The notes: generated from the sequence alone by a model not told the origin. Positions 17,626 through 42,872 are shown, counted from the first letter of the stretch. The stretch is 64,000 nt of DNA from Candidatus Versatilivorator sp. (GCA_965207735.1 OZ242296.1:4704001-4768000); one strand, 5' to 3'. Numbers and translations: made by a program.

Positions 17626-17985
17626 AGTGGCGCGGCCCTCCGACGGGGCGGATCATTCGAGGGTGAAACAACCCAACATCATCAGGTTTCGGCAACAGGG
17701 AAATTTTCCGTCAAACCGGTCGGCTGCATGAGGGAACATGGATAGACAGGATGAACAGGATATAGAGGACGAAACGCTGCTGCAGAGGAAGCTGACTGGC
17801 GCGAAACGAGACGCAGGATGCCCGCAATCGGGGCAAGGCGGTTTAGGACGACAATCCTGTAAATCCTGTGCATCCATGTTAAACAACTCTTTTTGCGCTC
17901 GGGGCCGAGACCAAACGCCGGAACTTGAAGGGCGTCACTTCGTGTGTCTTCGTGGATAACTCTTTTTTTCTGTTGTTTCAGACAA
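17626..17985 (+). mobile_element. Non-autonomous cassette with IS110 ends, inserted between mgdC and mgdD
   Basis: 17641-17672 is identical over 32 nt to 24412-24443; right end GTTGTTTCAGACAA at 17972-17985; removal restores an ATGA stop/start overlap. Confidence 0.75.
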
Positions 17986-20893
17986 TCCGCTCTTTCTGCC
18001 GCAGGTTCCCGGGATCGTAAAAGGGCAGCTCCACCACCCGGGCCGTGAACAGCCAGCGGCCGCCGGTTCGGATGCGGACGGGCGTGCCGGGTGCGGACAG
18101 TTCCGGCTGTACGTAGGCCAGGCCGATGACCTGCTTCAGGGTGGGGCTGAAAGCGGCGCTGGTGACCCGGCCCGCAATCTCTCCCCCATGGATCACCAGC
18201 TCGCATTCCCGGGGCACGGGTCCCCCATAGGACTCGGGGAAGGCGAACCCCACCAAGCGGCGTTTGAGGGGCCTGGTCTTCAGAATGGAGAGGCTGCGCT
18301 GGCCCAGAAAGAAGGGTTTGTCGCCCTTGACCGCCCAGTCCATCCCCGCCTCGGCCGGATAGGAAAGCCCGTCCGAATCCTGGCCCATGATCAGGTGCCC
18401 CTTCTCCAGCCGCAGCAGGCGTTGGGCCTCCACGCCGAAGGGGCGAATGCCGGCGCCCCGCCCGGCCTCCAGGAGCCGGTCCCAGACCCCCACGGCGGCA
18501 TCGGCGGGCAGGTGGATCTCGTAGCCCCACTCGCCCACGAATCCGACTCGCAGGACGCGGGCGGGCGCCCCGGCAACCCGGCCCTGGCGAACGCCCAGGT
18601 AGGGGAAGGCCTCCGGATCCAGATCGATGTCGGTCAACGGTTGCAAGACCTCAAGGGATTGGGGGCCGGCCAGGTTCATGGCCCCGTAGGCGCCCGTCAG
18701 GTTGAGAACCATCACCTTTAGCGACCAGACCAAGGCCCAGCGGGTCATCTCCCGAGCAACCGCGTCGGAGGCCCCGCTGGTGGTGGTCACGTAGAAGCGG
18801 TCGGAGGCCAGCCGGGCCGCCACCCCGTCGTCCACCATCATGCCGCTCTCGTCGCACATCAGGAGATAGCGGCTTCTGCCTTCCTTCAGCTTGGCAAACC
18901 GACCCGTGTACATCCTCTCAATGAAGGCTACGGCGTCCGGGCCGCAGATTTCCAGCTTGCCCAGGGTGCCCACGTCCACCAGGCCCACCCGGCCGCGAAC
19001 AGCCTCGGCTTCCGCCTGGATGGCTGCCCTCCGGTCGGTTCCGGGGACCTGGTAGTATTCCGGCCGCAGCCAGCTTCCCGCAACCATGAAACGGGCGCCC
19101 AGTTGACGGTGGCGGGTATGGATGGGGGTTCGGCGTTGGGGGCTGAAGATGCGCCCGGCCAGATGGCTCAAGGGCACCGGGCTGGTGAAGGGCCGGGACG
19201 TGGTGAGTCCGGTCGACGCCAGCGATTTCCGCTTGAGGCGAGCCAGGATGCGGCTGCCATTGAGGTTGGAGTGCTTGCCCTGGCTGGGTCCCATGCCCAG
19301 GGTCGAGTAGCGTTTCAGCAGCTCGGCGCTGTCGAATCCCTCCTGGATGCTGTGCCGAATGTCATCCAGCTGGATGTCCTCGTCCAAGTCCACGAAAACC
19401 TTGCCGCGTGGGTGGGGAACCACCGGGTAGGGGTGGCTGAAGGCCGGCCCCCGGCGTGGGGGCTCCGCCGGCGCTTCGGAACCGGCTTTCCCCAAAAAGG
19501 TTGCCGCCTGGCGGCCGGCGCGTCGGCCGTCCTCTAGCTGATCTTCCAGGGCATAGACCCCGTTGACCCGTCCGGCGGCAAAGACCCCGGCCGGCAGTTG
19601 GTCCGGGACATACTGTTCCAGACGTTCATCGTAGGCCATGCGGGCTCCGGCTTGCCGGAGGATGCCGTCGGCAGGGGCCCATCCCACACTCATGGCGATG
19701 CCGTCGCAGGCAATGGGCTCGGATTGTTCGGTCAGGGCCTCGCCGCGGCCATCCAGAGAACAGAGCCGGGCTCCGCGGATGGCTCGCTTGCCGGGAGCCG
19801 TCAGGGCTTCATGGACGGCGGTGCCGTGGCGAATGGGGATCCCGAGGCCGACCACTTCCTTTCTCCAGCCTGAAGTCTCCCCTTGCGGGCGCAGATCGGA
19901 GACCAGCGCCACCCTCACCCCGGCCCGGTGCAGGTCGACCGCCGCCCGGTAACCGTCGGAGTTGGCCGCCAACACCACCGCTTGCCGGAAGGGCTTTACC
20001 GCATACTGGTGGATCAGACGCTGCGCCGCCGAGGCCAGCATGACTCCGGGGAGGTCGTTGTTGCGAAATACGGCGGGTTGGTCGTAACAGCCGGCCGCCA
20101 CCACCAGGCCGCCGGCACGCAGCTTGGTTAGCCGCCGGGAGTCGAACAGGGATACCCAGCGGTCGGCGTAGCAGCCGGCGGCGGTAGTTCCGGTGCGCAA
20201 TTCCAGGTTGGGCAGGGACTCGGCCTTGTCCAGCAGTTCTTCCAACAGGCCCCCGGCTTTCGGCTCTCCAGGCAACTGGAACGCCAGGCTCCCGCCCGGC
20301 CGGCGATCCTCTTCCACCAACAGGACCTTCAACCCCAGCTCGGCCGCCGCGATGGCCGCCGAGAGGCCGGCGGGGCCGGAGCCCACCACCAGCAGATCGC
20401 AGAAGTCGTAGCGCTTGGGGGTCGGTTCCAGCGGCTGATCCGGCTGGATGTTGCCCAGCCCGGCAATACGGCGCATGCGGCGCTCGAAAAAGGGAAAGAG
20501 TGCGCGGGGTCGGTGGAAGGCCTTGTAGTAGAAGCCAACCGGAAGGAAGGCTGAAAAGAGCTCGGTGAAGCGGTAGAGGTCCGACTGCACGCCTCCCCAG
20601 GTATTGACCGCCCTTACCTTCAGCCCCGGCTCGATGGGGGCGGTGTCCATCCTCAGGTTGGTCGAGTCCCGACTTTCGGCCAGGGCGTTGCAGTCCAGAC
20701 CGCACAAGCTGAAGATGCCGCGGGGCCGATGGTACTTGAAGCTGCGTCCCAGCACCCGCACGCCCGAGGCCCACAGGGCCGTGCTGAGGGTGTCCCCCCG
20801 AAATCCCTGGTAGCGGCGGCCTTCAAAGGAGAAGCCGACCGGCTGCTCCCGATCGATTCGTTCACCGGGTTGGGGGCCGAGGCGTTCACTCAT
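17978..20893 (-). CDS. mgdC: N-methylglutamate dehydrogenase subunit C (sarcosine oxidase alpha-like)
   Basis: GRSFKYHRPRG, VVGSGPAG, GMGPSQGK, GcvT-like C-terminus (GFVGEWGYEI, LRLEKG). Confidence 0.9.
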   Translation of the reverse strand: MSERLGPQPGERIDREQPVGFSFEGRRYQGFRGDTLSTALWASGVRVLGRSFKYHRPRGIFSLCGLDCNALAESRDSTNLRMDTAPIEPGLKVRAVNTWGGVQSDLYRFTELFSAFLPVGFYYKAFHRPRALFPFFERRMRRIAGLGNIQPDQPLEPTPKRYDFCDLLVVGSGPAGLSAAIAAAELGLKVLLVEEDRRPGGSLAFQLPGEPKAGGLLEELLDKAESLPNLELRTGTTAAGCYADRWVSLFDSRRLTKLRAGGLVVAAGCYDQPAVFRNNDLPGVMLASAAQRLIHQYAVKPFRQAVVLAANSDGYRAAVDLHRAGVRVALVSDLRPQGETSGWRKEVVGLGIPIRHGTAVHEALTAPGKRAIRGARLCSLDGRGEALTEQSEPIACDGIAMSVGWAPADGILRQAGARMAYDERLEQYVPDQLPAGVFAAGRVNGVYALEDQLEDGRRAGRQAATFLGKAGSEAPAEPPRRGPAFSHPYPVVPHPRGKVFVDLDEDIQLDDIRHSIQEGFDSAELLKRYSTLGMGPSQGKHSNLNGSRILARLKRKSLASTGLTTSRPFTSPVPLSHLAGRIFSPQRRTPIHTRHRQLGARFMVAGSWLRPEYYQVPGTDRRAAIQAEAEAVRGRVGLVDVGTLGKLEICGPDAVAFIERMYTGRFAKLKEGRSRYLLMCDESGMMVDDGVAARLASDRFYVTTTSGASDAVAREMTRWALVWSLKVMVLNLTGAYGAMNLAGPQSLEVLQPLTDIDLDPEAFPYLGVRQGRVAGAPARVLRVGFVGEWGYEIHLPADAAVGVWDRLLEAGRGAGIRPFGVEAQRLLRLEKGHLIMGQDSDGLSYPAEAGMDWAVKGDKPFFLGQRSLSILKTRPLKRRLVGFAFPESYGGPVPRECELVIHGGEIAGRVTSAAFSPTLKQVIGLAYVQPELSAPGTPVRIRTGGRWLFTARVVELPFYDPGNLRQKERIV

Positions 20894-21152
20894 GGTGGTC
20901 ATCTTCCCCATACAGGTAGGTTCGCAGGATCTCGTCGCTGGAGGTGTTGCGTTCGGCGATGAACCAGACGCCGCTGGCCAGGTGGCACCACCACTCCTTC
21001 TTGACGGCGGCGGCCCCGGAGCGGTGGAACACGTAGCCGGCCCACTGCCGGTCGGAGCATTCACCGGGCGGGGGCATCGGCCGGAAGGTGCCGCCGTAGG
21101 AAAACTCCTGAACGGGCCGCCAGCCGTTGACGGGGCAATGCATCAGCTTCAT
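20886..21152 (-). CDS. mgdB: N-methylglutamate dehydrogenase subunit B (sarcosine oxidase delta-like)
   Basis: CPVNGWR..EF.YGG, EWWCH, RNT. Confidence 0.88.
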   Translation of the reverse strand: MKLMHCPVNGWRPVQEFSYGGTFRPMPPPGECSDRQWAGYVFHRSGAAAVKKEWWCHLASGVWFIAERNTSSDEILRTYLYGEDDHHE

Positions 21153-42200: not shown

Positions 42201-42255
42201 AGCGCCATCAGGCCCCGGAAAAGCGACCGGGACCACAACGGGAGACTCAAACAAG

Positions 42256-42872
42256 TCCCGCCCCCGCCGTTCCGGGCGGATCATACGAGAGTGAAACAAC
42301 GCATCTTCATGTCCTATCGGGAACAAGGGCCATGTCGTGCCAAACCGGTTATCTACTGATTGAACATGGATGCACAGGATAGGCAGGATAAACAGCCAAT
42401 GACGAGCGGCGCCCGGGTGCTTCTGCAATATTGGCAGTGGGACAGGTCATTTTGCCGGCAATCGTGATGTTCTGCCTATTTCAATAGTCGGGTGCGACCT
42501 GGTGGAAAAAGGAGTTCACCACAAAAAGCACAAAAGTCACAAAACGAATTTCGTGATTTCGAGTCCTGACGATCCGAATTTGATCCCCATGGCGACGCGT
42601 TGACCGAATGTATGCAGATAGCGCGGAACTTGTGCGACGGGTTCGGGAGTCAACGTCTTGCAGGCTTTCAGCGTTCTGCTCTTTTTGTGTTCTTGTGCCT
42701 TTTGTGGCCATCCCCGGCAAGGGTCCCGCTCCCGAATTTTGCAAGAGGCTCAATCAGTAATCGACCATCCCGTCGCGGTTTACCTCAACGCCTTAGTGGC
42801 CCTTCGTGGTCCTTCGTGCCCCTTCGTGGATAACTCTTTTTCTTTTGTCGTTTGTCGGTTGTTTCAGACAAG
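42256..42872 (+). mobile_element. Non-autonomous IS110-ended cassette with a nested MITE
   Basis: Left AG|TCCCGCCCCCGCC..GGGCGGATCATACGAGAGTGAAACAAC; right GTTGTTTCAGACAAG. Confidence 0.72.
42416..42751. mobile_element. MITE derived from the IS5/IS1182-like element
   Basis: Right end CGAATTTTGCAAGAGGCTC has one mismatch to the IR at 24345-24363; left about 60 nt is similar to 22877-22940. Confidence 0.62.

Follow-up and report, generated by a model that had tools for sequence, protein, structure and literature searches.

IS110-family element with numerous transposase-less cassettes that share its ends in an uncultured acidobacterium: likely mobilization guided by a predicted bridge RNA

Close precedents for the association of an IS110-family element with noncoding units are provided by the ISPpu9/MITEPpu9 pair and by the tandem repeat units found beside IS110 elements. 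In Pseudomonas putida KT2440, according to the available part of the report, MITEPpu9 is a nonautonomous module that is flanked by copies of the ISPpu9 end boxes, carries an invariant AG at the ends, and is located head-to-tail with the IS or alone elsewhere, occurring in tandem in some strains; circles of ISPpu9, of the IS plus the module, and of the module alone have been detected (PMC12288879). Mobilization of end-only constructs in trans has been experimentally established in such relatives, as described in the accessible sections of two papers (PMC11187229, PMC12288879); in the former, ISEc11 ends placed around foreign DNA move when transposase and noncoding RNA are supplied in trans. In IS621, the left guides are described as having the same sense as the left target and left donor, including the 2-nt core (PMC11208160, PMC11208158, excerpts). 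Two preprints outline a copy-out excision that depends on the donor arms. The tandem noncoding repeat units beside IS110 are described, in the portion of the report at hand, as keeping the left-donor match at the unit boundaries (10.64898/2026.08.14.744561). Excerpts on the neisserial dRS3 and RS arrays describe intergenic arrays of many families of 50- to 150-bp units, each bounded by a short hairpin-like repeat, which vary between strains and for which a site-specific recombinase has been proposed as the builder (PMC1797815).

The locus analyzed here is a 64,000-nt stretch (the window) from the 5.26-Mb genome of an uncultured acidobacterium. A first-pass annotation had described in it four segments with the ends of a co-resident IS110 element, regarding three of them as transposase-less cargo cassettes. 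All four segments proved to have such ends (Table 1); of the assigned bounds, only those of the first segment needed correction, as it starts at 17628 and its right end lacks the final G (..CAGACAA followed by T). The 32-nt identity between positions 17641 and 24412 was also recovered, as was the dissimilarity of the interiors, which contain a recombinase gene with DEDD_Tnp_IS110 and Transposase_20 domains in one case and a nested IS with DDE_Tnp_1/DUF772 domains in another. The term "cargo" had to be dropped, since the only open reading frames inside the cassettes belong to other nested transposons. The first cassette lies between the start of a GCV_T-domain gene and the stop of a sarcosine-oxidase-alpha-like gene, whose stop codon is supplied by the cassette right end. 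Contigs from other copies join 22870 to 24362, representing the uninterrupted form of the cassette at 22720, and the nested remnant in the last cassette terminates in the inverted repeat of the IS5-type element.

TABLE 1 Features of the window (positions counted from its first nucleotide)
Feature	Position	Strand	Remark
358-bp transposase-less cassette, own interior type	17628..17985	+	AG precedes at 17626-17627
Degenerate right-end-like sequence GGTGTTTCAGGTAG	22706..22719	+	Left target of the cassette starting at 22720
182-bp-type cassette split by nested IS	22720..24393	+	Left end 22720-22767, right end ..TTTGTTTCAGGCGAG
Nested IS5-type IS, terminal inverted repeats GAGCCTTTTGCAAAATTCGG	22877..24363	-	Transposase ORF 23090-24265
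Autonomous IS110-family element IS-A	24394..26067	+	1 of 10 genomic copies
Left-terminus GC hairpin (CCGCCCC/GGGGCGG)	24402..24422	+	IS-A
Conserved subterminal left-end motif GGATCATTCGAGGGTGAAACAAC	24421..24443	+	IS-A
Predicted bridge RNA core	24467..24629	+	Closing stem CTCCGGC (24477-24483)/GCCGGAG (24617-24623)
Predicted left target guide AAGGCAAG	24521..24528	+	Guide-flank matches
Predicted donor loop, 5' strand, CATCATTCATTAGTGA	24546..24561	+	Its 7-mer has the same sense as left-end ATCATTC
Predicted left donor guide AAGGCAAG	24584..24591	+	Guide-right-end matches
Recombinase gene, 464 aa	24650..26044	+	DEDD_Tnp_IS110 (E 9e-22), Transposase_20 (E 2e-12)
Right end GTTGTTTCAGGCAAG, last AG = core	26053..26067	+	IS-A
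617-bp transposase-less cassette, interior type starting CGCATCTTCATG..	42256..42872	+	With nested remnant

The proposed family of transposase-less elements extends well beyond the window: the 47-nt left end and the 16-nt right end of the IS also bound ∼230 such elements genome-wide, including a 182-bp unit, a 63-bp mini unit, and several types of 350 to 950 bp. Common to the IS and the cassettes are the terminal GC hairpin, a left 26-nt subterminal motif, and GTTGTTTCAGRCAAG on the right, and both are arranged head-to-tail with AG at the joints. These elements share both ends with an autonomous element of the same genome, have no transposase of their own (the units of 63 to ∼950 bp are devoid of long open reading frames), and occur in many dispersed copies with insertion polymorphism among relatives, as expected of nonautonomous (MITE-like) derivatives. 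The larger units are host to further ISs, whose stop-free frames span 415, 456, and 465 codons (the Pfam scan covered the nested IS of the window). The definition of a classical MITE does not apply, as the ends are asymmetric, the inverted repeat is only subterminal (9 bp), and, in place of a target-site duplication, the shared flank consists of only the AG core and the right-end likeness of the target. In the window, the left-end motif GGGCGGATCATWC has four matches with at most 1 mismatch, all on the plus strand (17646, 22738, 24417, and 42274; 0.33 expected by chance), and the right-end motif GTTGTTTCAGRC has six (0.41 expected), four of them on the plus strand at the right ends described above and two on the minus strand at 22469 and 22694; neither count was reached in any of 100 shuffles. 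Genome-wide, the left-end 26-mer yields 236 matches with at most 4 mismatches (0 in the reversed genome) and the right-end 15-mer yields 295 with at most 2 (1 in the reversed genome). The genome-wide pairing that the first-pass annotation had suggested checking holds for the 167 of 236 left ends that are followed by a same-strand right end and fails for the remaining 69 left ends and for 128 right ends, which count against the explanation preferred below. The left-end 7-mer is ATCATAC in 81 cases, ATCATTC in 79, and ATCATCC in 34, and the right end is CAGACAAG in 125 cases and CAGGCAAG in 96, with no linkage between the two polymorphic positions.

Of the 236 left ends, 84 lie immediately next to a right end of the family, and the chains so formed include LRLR, RLRLR, and, at the longest, RLRLRLRLRLR. 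In the window, this is seen at 24393/24394 and, with the degenerate GGTGTTTCAGGTAG, before 22720, which bears out the two abutments that had been noticed at 22.7 to 26.1 kb. The abutted right end-left end junction, as in a circular intermediate, is thus already present in chromosomal arrays. A cassette right end directly precedes 10 of the 10 IS copies, and a cassette left end follows 3 of the 10; direct IS-IS tandems were found in the sister genome G013 and in L059, whose target and donor guides differ at a single nucleotide. Left ends that are not preceded by a right end have TTTCAGRYAAG-like flanks, in which, with the junction set by a rule taken from the arrays and 82 of the 236 left ends dropped as not anchorable, AG ends 58 of 86 flanks, CAAG ends 27, and TAAG ends 15.

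Three loci of the window are empty or carry different stacks in sister genomes, at a divergence too high to place the empty-site junctions to the base. At the sarcosine-oxidase site, the cassette is also present in G002, other cassette types are found in G008, G012, and G013, and the site is empty in five genomes (G001, G003, G004, G006, and G011). The segment 22457-26068 is absent from G002 and G013, replaced in G005 by a different 1.27-kb stack with the same right flank at its end, and bypassed in contigs of the X9 and X3 runs, which join 22456 or 22453 to 26069. The empty alleles that the first-pass annotation had proposed looking for thus exist in related genomes. At the site of the last cassette, G013 and G005 have a different cassette type after the flank ..AAATTCAGRCAAG; at one site, an IS and a cassette of G002 sit between the flank and a resident cassette that is also present in G000.

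The IS-A protein has the N-terminal DEDD (RuvC-like) domain and the C-terminal Tnp domain of the IS110 family (PF01548, E 9.2e-22, residues 29 to 174; PF02371, E 2.4e-12, residues 308 to 385; both above the curated cutoffs). The element lacks terminal inverted repeats and a long target duplication; the one inverted repeat present is subterminal (9 bp), and TGAAACAAC of the left-end motif recurs in inverted form as GTTGTTTCA of the right end. In all lineages listed, the left end follows an AG and the right end closes with one, in line with the 2-nt core stated in the first-pass annotation. The leader of 256 nt is likewise typical of the family, with predicted left guides that match the left target and the left donor. 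A conserved leader fold was predicted from 15 sequences, with compensatory changes in 7 of 38 pairs; a search of Rfam gave no matching family. Across relatives, one 8-nt leader segment covaries with the left flank and a second one with the right end of the same element; from these matches, the first is predicted to act as the left target guide and the second as the left donor guide. In this lineage, both read AAGRCAAG. Among 33 IS copies drawn from 7 genomes or records, 32 show full identity between the last 7 nt of the putative donor guide and their own right end, a match that includes an A/G polymorphism within the one source genome. Over its last 6 nt, the putative target guide agrees fully with the left flank in 24 of 34 copies; 9 of the other copies have one mismatch, and 1 has two. 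The target guides form three classes, GRCAAG, GGTAAG, and GGTCAG; the 80%-identical relative IS-B, with the target guide AAGGTCAG, is preceded by GGTCAG heptad repeats and not by a right end. In 7 more distant lineages, read by eye, agreement with the flank was seen for the target guide in 6, and agreement with the right end was likewise seen for the donor guide in 6. Both left guides are located on the 3' strand of their loops in the predicted fold, and the other strand of the donor loop has a same-sense, covarying match to the 7-nt subterminal left-end motif behind the terminal hairpin. For right-side guides (antisense to AG plus the first left-end or right-flank bases), the RNA alignment of the 15 lineages contains no consistent column, another point against the explanation preferred below.

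These data are probably best explained by an IS110-family element and its noncoding, end-only derivatives, which the IS recombinase, guided by the predicted bridge RNA, likely copies and inserts. The recombinase and the RNA would reach the cassettes in trans and follow the copy-out and paste-in route described for IS621 and CazIS110-1; such mobilization by a partner enzyme is suggested by the agreement of cassette ends and flanks with the guides. With identical target and donor guides, a feature that the first-pass annotation had not noticed, any family member would offer the preferred target (of the type TTTCAGGCAAG) at its right end, and arrays could form at any right-end-like site. After an insertion, the new right end and the old right flank would recreate the target, allowing repeated hits and array growth between genes, and cassettes could serve as donors because they keep the donor arms. 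A more tentative proposal, which we regard as possible and rather doubtful, is a natural bridge RNA system in which the target guide is set equal to the donor guide, each insertion becomes the next landing site, and the RNA reads a three-part donor signature: the right end with AG, the terminal hairpin of free sequence, and the 7-nt subterminal motif. If true, it would mean that one recombinase-RNA pair turns minimal end-only DNAs into genus-wide, NIME-like intergenic arrays and that the signature constitutes a mode of donor recognition undescribed for IS621.

Alternatively, array growth beside the IS could be a largely local process (unequal crossing-over, slippage, or a one-sided duplication initiated at the left donor), with no independent insertions. 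For tandem units that match the left donor alone, in-place duplication has been proposed in the available part of 10.64898/2026.08.14.744561, and adjacent 182-bp units are indeed somewhat more alike than all pairs (89.5% versus 86.9%; the mean was reached by 0 or 1 of 2,000 random draws, P = 0.0005), with the neighbor among the five closest units in 8 of 39 pairs. Some local duplication therefore occurred too. However, neighboring units are mostly not each other's closest relatives (median similarity rank, 51 of 155), the arrays mix different cassette types and the IS, one site carries different stacks in different species, and single cassettes (66 LR patterns) are found at many nonarray sites. 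Growth in place as the main process is therefore quite improbable, and head-to-tail stacking through site-specific insertion, not mainly through local duplication, is supported.

The alternative that an IS110 relative, either older or different, left the cassettes behind as fossils and that the resident IS lands on their right ends but no longer moves them, or never did, has more in its favor and is still unlikely. Most 182-bp units are ∼13% diverged from one another, whereas the IS copies are 97 to 100% alike; most of the cassette spread therefore predates the present IS burst, and the same gap makes present-day mobilization by this particular IS a matter of presumption. Cassettes are found in 12 of 13 sister genomes, with 54 to 401 left-end motifs each, including G009 (317 motifs), in which the IS110 DEDD domain is missing and only a decayed leader remnant is left; G009 counts against the preferred explanation. 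So do the mismatches to the resident guides at the polymorphic positions, where about half of the cassettes differ at one position; furthermore, ∼80 nt near the right end (CTTCGTG repeats and a T-tract) are common to all cassette types and absent from the IS. Against the fossil explanation, 31 pairs of units that are at least 97% alike (best pair, 99.5%) lie more than 5 kb apart, cassette content at the same site varies between sister species, and most copies retain donor arms that fit the resident guide (CAGRCAAG in 221 of 295 right ends). Finally, the cassettes might be host or independent REP- or NIME-like repeats that were spread by another enzyme and that the IS resembles only through its targeting. 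Repeats of this sort typically feature GC hairpins and intergenic mosaics, and the neisserial NIME arrays, as portrayed in the excerpts of PMC1797815, look similar. This explanation is very improbable, given that the 47-nt left end and 16-nt right end go with all 10 IS copies into different contexts, that guide matches place the IS boundaries outside the shared ends, and that naive cassette flanks match the IS target guide.

The first-pass annotation had likened the array to an integron. Integrons stack circularizable cassettes in the same orientation by site-specific recombination. They do so with a tyrosine integrase, at a single fixed, promoter-bearing attI platform, and with gene cassettes that carry attC. 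The site-specific, same-orientation, head-to-tail stacking is shared by the units described here; the integron architecture does not fit, because the cassettes have no genes and the arrays lie at many sites with no integron-like platform. The phage recombinase that acts at dRS3 is of the IS110/Piv kind. In contrast to the neisserial arrays, which have unrelated sequences and, in the account available, no demonstrated guide RNA, both ends and an enzyme gene are identified here. The ISEc11 construct was an engineered one of the IS1111 type, with a downstream noncoding region, unlike the natural family and its arrays reported here. As in the expanded IS110 loci (10.64898/2026.08.14.744561, as far as the available text goes), noncoding units accumulate beside IS110, but here the guides predict regeneration of the target, and the units are dispersed genome-wide with mostly unrelated copies as neighbors. 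IS-A resembles IS621 in its DEDD/Tnp recombinase, the predicted leader RNA upstream of the gene, and the predicted same-sense left guides with the 2-nt core. It differs in having the core AG rather than CT, both predicted left guides on the 3' strands of their loops with canonical right guides not found among 15 lineages, a target guide equal to the donor guide, and a terminal hairpin that separates the core from the conserved left-end motif with its same-sense match to the other donor-loop strand. Like ISPpu9/MITEPpu9, the present system combines an IS110-family element with an end-sharing module, AG at the ends, and head-to-tail stacking. Unlike MITEPpu9, the cassettes, which are known here from sequence, number ∼230 copies in several noncoding families, are genus-wide, and lie mostly upstream of the IS, and because both left guides are equal, their predicted target is the family's own right end.

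The insertion sequence IS-A, the IS110-family element of the window (24394-26067), shares its left end (LE) and right end (RE) with transposase-less elements, here referred to as cassettes. The four segments singled out in the first-pass annotation do carry the ends ascribed to them: the window contains four matches to the LE motif GGGCGGATCATWC (at most 1 mismatch), every one on the + strand (expected, 0.33; 4 matches reached in 0 of 100 shuffles), and the RE motif GTTGTTTCAGRC, at the same threshold, has six (expected, 0.41; 6 matches reached in 0 of 100 shuffles), four of which close the four segments. 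RE and LE abut directly at 24393/24394, and a degenerate RE-like sequence, GGTGTTTCAGGTAG, precedes the LE at 22720. This end-sharing, head-to-tail arrangement is confirmed and extended here. The first-pass proposal that one recombinase serves a family of cargo cassettes collected in an integron-like array is supported in outline, without its "cargo" and "integron-like" parts: no cassette with a gene of its own was found, the long open frames being other, nested insertion sequences, and arrays occur wherever an RE-like site exists rather than on a dedicated platform. An Rfam scan of 17000-43500 gave no match on the elements, and a simple scan of 24300-24700 for sigma-70 promoters and terminators found none. 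Elsewhere in the window, at 38906-38952 (+), there is a below-threshold match to the Rfam family Acido-Lenti-1 (31.7 bits vs a gathering score of 37; E 0.001).

Features of IS-A and of the adjacent cassette, in window positions
Feature	Position	Remark
IS110 recombinase gene	24650-26044	both IS110 domains found; 464 aa
Nested element inside cassette 22720-24393		DDE_Tnp_1 transposase
Leader RNA region of IS-A	about 24394-24649	
Left-end 7-mer of IS-A	24424-24430	
Predicted left target guide	24521-24528	
Donor-loop 7-mer of leader	within 24546-24561	
Predicted left donor guide	24584-24591	

The host genome (one contig of 5,264,214 bp; 61.9% G+C) carries 10 full-length IS-A copies, of which four are 99.8-100% and six 97.2-97.6% identical to the window copy. 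Exact mismatch counting detected 236 LEs (26-mer, at most 4 mismatches) and 295 REs (15-mer, at most 2 mismatches), compared with 0 and 1, respectively, in the reversed genome that served as a control. Genome-wide pairing of the ends holds for 167 of the 236 LEs, which are followed by an RE on the same strand; the remaining LEs have no such partner. The distance from the LE motif to the RE is less than 60 nt in 19 cases (a 63-bp mini unit), 100-180 nt in ∼97 (a 182-bp unit), 300-1000 nt in 27 (several interior types), and about 1650 nt in 12 (10 of them IS copies, the other 2 units interrupted by a nested IS). A profile search with the 182-bp unit yielded 377 matches, 156 of them full length. 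The mini unit consists of LE and RE alone, joined at a short common GGG(G) (C1:4472715-4472780 of the host genome and 18 other places); such units are also found in the sister genomes G002, G005, and G008, and IS-B, an ∼80%-identical relative of IS-A, has a matching mini unit of its own. A 23-nt LE pattern (at most 2 mismatches) occurs 54 to 401 times per genome in 12 of the 13 sister genomes and 0 times in G001, with the reversed-pattern control giving 0 everywhere; the cassette family is genus-wide. Within the 182-bp unit, the ends (0.92 and 0.90) are only slightly more conserved than the interior (0.88-0.89), an excess from which no argument is drawn. Because all cassette types have in common ∼80 nt next to the RE (CTTCGTG repeats and a T-tract) that are absent from the IS, their founder may have been another element. 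The average cassette predates the IS copies, and sister genome G009 keeps 317 LE motifs with no IS110 DEDD domain, retaining only a decayed left end and leader without the gene.

Empty alleles, which the first-pass annotation had proposed to look for, are present at two sites. Both G002 (..GGGGCG/TCAACTCAGG..) and G013 (..GGTTCAGGCAAG/CTCGACTCAGG..) lack the interval 22457-26068, which in the window consists of another MITE, the nested-IS cassette, and IS-A. In G004 and G008 the site is occupied by the other MITE only. G005 has a 1.27-kb stack of different composition, built from one mini unit, two further cassette-like segments, and a pair of 182-bp units, with ..TTTCAGGTAAG/CTCAACTCAGG at its junction to the right flank common with the window. 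Contigs of two public runs from other samples (X9 and X3) join 22456 or 22453 to 26069; these runs were used as contigs, in which joints within repeats derive from other copies and are uninformative. The MITE itself (22465-22690) is of a different kind, bounded by inverted AGTGGAGAG-type heptad repeats with CACTGGCCTGAAACA on both flanks, and has related copies in the same intergenic site of G004 and G008. At the second site, the cassette 17628-17985 separates two genes whose stop and start codons overlap (ATGA) where the site is empty (G001, G003, G004, G006, and G011). The stop codon of the sarcosine-oxidase-alpha-like gene lies within the cassette RE (TTTCAG on the - strand), so that the cassette changed the final codons of this gene and ended the coupling between the two (window 17978-17980 and 17622-17624). 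The same cassette is found in G002, and other interiors with the same RE-proximal part in G008, G012, and G013. In G005 and G009 (loci L019 and L021) this gene junction is occupied by an unrelated MITE, 260-330 bp long with terminal inverted repeats GCCCGCATTTCTCACC.., a type also present at an unrelated site of the host genome (C1 ∼5185150-5185500). At the site of 42256-42872, the flank ..AAATTCAGRCAAG of G013 and G005 is followed by a different cassette type, and at one G002 locus IS-A and a 140-bp cassette lie between the flank ..CAGGCAAG and a resident cassette also found in the host genome. When the IS flanks of the relatives were placed on the host genome with at most 3 alignments per query, most cases were lost in repeats and only the remaining ones were used. 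The 5-10% divergence of the sister genomes at these sites means that they do not by themselves locate the junctions to single-base precision.

As described for IS621, the left target guide and left donor guide of the bridge RNA have the top-strand sense of the left target and left donor, both including the core (PMC11208160, PMC11208158). The leader of IS-A, the noncoding region 5' of the recombinase gene and the predicted bridge RNA, contains two 8-mers in the conserved frames GTGCCCC[8]nnTGGGTCC and CTCCYC[8]AATCC, which were compared with the flanks of 34 IS copies (from G000, the host genome, and G002, G004, G005, G008, and G013, plus one further record). The last 7 nt of the second 8-mer are those of the element's own RE in 32 of 33 copies, an agreement that extends to the A/G polymorphism among the 10 host copies (A with A in 2, G with G in 8). 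The last 6 nt of the first 8-mer are those of the left flank in 24 of 34 copies (one mismatch in 9, two in 1), with AAGRCAAG behind ..CAGRCAAG, AAGGTAAG behind ..CAGGTAAG, and AAGGTCAG behind ..GTGGTCAG. IS-B (G008 and G013; 80% protein identity) constitutes the third class; it keeps the donor guide GAGACAAG and the RE ..CAGACAAG and is located in GGTCAG heptad repeats, not behind an RE. IS-B targets heptad repeats of the GTGGTCAG type. In seven distant lineages (63-68% protein identity), with the markedly different words CCCTAG, CGTAAG, GGCTAG, GGCAAG, GGTCAG, CACTAG, and CATCAG, the match, read by eye, holds in 6 of 7 for the target guide and in 6 of 7 for the donor guide. This covariation with flank and RE points to the first 8-mer as the predicted target guide, the second as the predicted donor guide, and AG as the putative core. 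A search for canonical right guides, which would be antisense to AG together with 2-4 nt from the start of the LE or right flank, gave no consistent alignment column among 15 lineages, the best column being a reflection of the invariant GGCT only.

Several loci and RNA-library contigs touch on these leaders. In one distant relative, at locus L054 (Candidatus Marinacidobacterales), the RE ..TTTCGGGCAAG corresponds to the target guide instead of the donor guide (AGGGTCAG); recombination of a target-type with a donor-type site may have swapped the ends. Four metatranscriptome runs yielded contigs that overlap parts of the window leader (e.g., 24414-24568 in X16 and 24476-25218 in X17); this coverage is not counted as expression, because DNA carry-over and multi-copy ends are possible sources. 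RNA-library contigs of two studies (X15 and X20) diverge from the window leader at 24625 and continue with letters resembling locus L007 (G009:C1:3635164-3638398, - strand, ∼1501-1735 of the locus), where an orphan LE and bridge-RNA-like leader with the guides AAGACAAG and AAAGTAAG are followed by an unrelated gene in a genome devoid of the IS110 DEDD domain.

In IS-A, the target guide and the donor guide are one and the same word. The best IS-A target would be the family RE (predicted target type TTTCAGGCAAG plus NN), and after insertion the RE of the newcomer and the old right flank would make a target once more; guide identity would therefore mean that the target is regenerated at every insertion. 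All 10 IS-A copies sit directly behind a cassette RE (..GGTTGTTTCAGRCAAG/TCCCGCC..), and 3 of them are followed directly by the LE of another cassette. In the host genome as a whole, a family RE lies directly 5' of the LE in 84 of 236 cases, and the order of LE (L) and RE (R) forms chains of the types LR (66), RLR (27), LRLR (13), RLRLR (9), and LRLRLR (6), the longest being RLRLRLRLRLR. In each of two arrays inspected, an IS forms the 3' end. IS-IS tandems are absent among the 10 host copies; G013 has two IS-A copies in direct tandem, and locus L059, whose two guides differ from each other by 1 nt, contains an IS-IS tandem; both tandems fit a self-renewing target.

Local duplication could produce similar arrays. 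Adjacent full-length 182-bp units (39 pairs) are slightly more alike than all pairs (mean identity, 0.895 vs 0.869), and the neighbor ranks in the top five in 8 of the 39 pairs, so some local duplication does occur. Nevertheless, the median rank of the neighbor is 51 among 155 others, and 31 pairs of units that are at least 97% alike are located >5 kb apart: most array neighbors are unrelated copies, which favors insertion over local duplication. The idea of a larger unit, in which a cassette with a nested IS5-type element and the IS move as one, was rejected, as the three loci in question do not have it in common: the window copy carries the nested IS in inverted orientation, and at the other two loci the homology begins within the cassette. 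This IS5-type element has inserted repeatedly in the T-tract near the RE of the 182-bp unit, with three 100%-identical copies at the same position (22877-24363 of the window, in the opposite orientation, and C1 ∼3821900-3823400 and ∼4080360-4081850 of the host genome); in other cassette units, the nested elements have stop-free frames that are 456 and 465 codons long.

Stepwise insertion behind REs appears to apply to the cassettes as well. The hairpin start could be anchored for 154 of the 236 LEs (the 82 without an anchor were dropped), and 68 of these are behind an RE. The flanks of the other 86 end in AG in 58 cases, CAAG in 27, and TAAG in 15 (consensus, TTTCAGRYAAG), the expectation for AG being ∼6% by arithmetic from base composition rather than from a shuffle; 221 of the 295 cassette and IS REs end in CAGRCAAG. 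By these counts and the flank consensus, the cassettes have retained the donor arm and are located behind the target word, and IS-A may mobilize them in trans.

The leader has a third match to the element. Folding 15 leaders to a consensus gives 38 pairs, of which 7 show compensatory changes, and predicts a closing stem (CUCCGGC/GCCGGAG; CCCCGG/CCGGGG in four lineages) and two internal loops, each with its left guide on the 3' strand. On the 5' strand of the donor loop, CAUCAUUCAUUAGUGA includes a 7-mer in the same sense as the LE motif after the terminal hairpin (GG ATCATTC GAGGGTGAAAC). RNA and DNA 7-mers covary across 11 lineages (ATCATTC, ATCGTTC, ATCCTTC, CCTATCA, and AGCATAC in RNA vs ATCATAC in DNA); read position by position, they are identical in 9 of the 11 and one base apart in 2. 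The hairpin between the core and this motif is variable in sequence with its pairing kept, and the RE/LE junction, taken as single-stranded DNA, is predicted to form a 9-10-bp outer stem (GTTGTTTCA plus TGAAACAAC) with the hairpin within (z-scores of -2.8 and -2.6 for the two strands). Being of the same sense, the RNA 7-mer would pair with the bottom strand, in contrast to the right donor guide described for IS621 (PMC11208160, PMC11208158). The match may represent a new way of donor reading, possibly defining what a mobilizable cassette must keep. Alternatively, the two 7-mers may be copies of a single protein-binding site that evolve in concert. Position 6 of the left-end 7-mer varies freely in cassettes (A 81, T 79, C 34, G 6), and a candidate linkage of its T/A variant with the G/A variant of the RE was rejected (17/17 vs 22/22; p = 1).

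Identity of the target and donor guides would give a sequence-level explanation for the accumulation of noncoding units beside IS110, and perhaps for older puzzles such as hairpin-bounded intergenic mosaics. The minimal mobilizable donor in natural genomes may be as short as 63 bp (hairpin, 26-nt motif, and 16-nt RE). In bridge-recombinase engineering, such a self-renewing landing site suggests that payloads could be stacked iteratively at a single locus, and the covarying, hairpin-displaced left-end motif may add a programmable layer to donor specificity. With hundreds of units per genome, some supplying stop codons or parting translationally coupled genes, the cassettes likely shape gene expression and rearrangement in uncultured symbiont-type Acidobacteria.

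Among known systems, the closest case is ISPpu9 with MITEPpu9, described as having AG at the ends, a module between copies of the IS boxes, circles of each module, 8 copies, and REP sequences as the target (PMC12288879). For ISEc11, an ends-only construct is reported to move with enzyme and RNA supplied in trans (PMC11187229); two preprints report copy-out excision with donor arms being sufficient, and a third presents the ISPpu10 target stem-loop as a second specificity layer. A 2026 survey of expanded IS110 loci reports tandem noncoding units beside IS110 (n = 468) with left-donor-only matches and, as presented there, assumes insertion without target regeneration (10.64898/2026.08.14.744561), the opposite of what is predicted for IS-A. 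Neisserial NIME arrays look similar, their origin being still a hypothesis in the account cited (PMC1797815). Within the set of papers covered, the literature search returned no description of equal target and donor guides or of a genome-wide IS110-derived cassette family, a point on which the supplements of the bioRxiv preprints may bear. Compared with these systems, the cassette family is set apart by its scale, by a guide identity that would predict a self-renewing target, and by the covarying, hairpin-displaced left-end motif as a candidate element of donor recognition.
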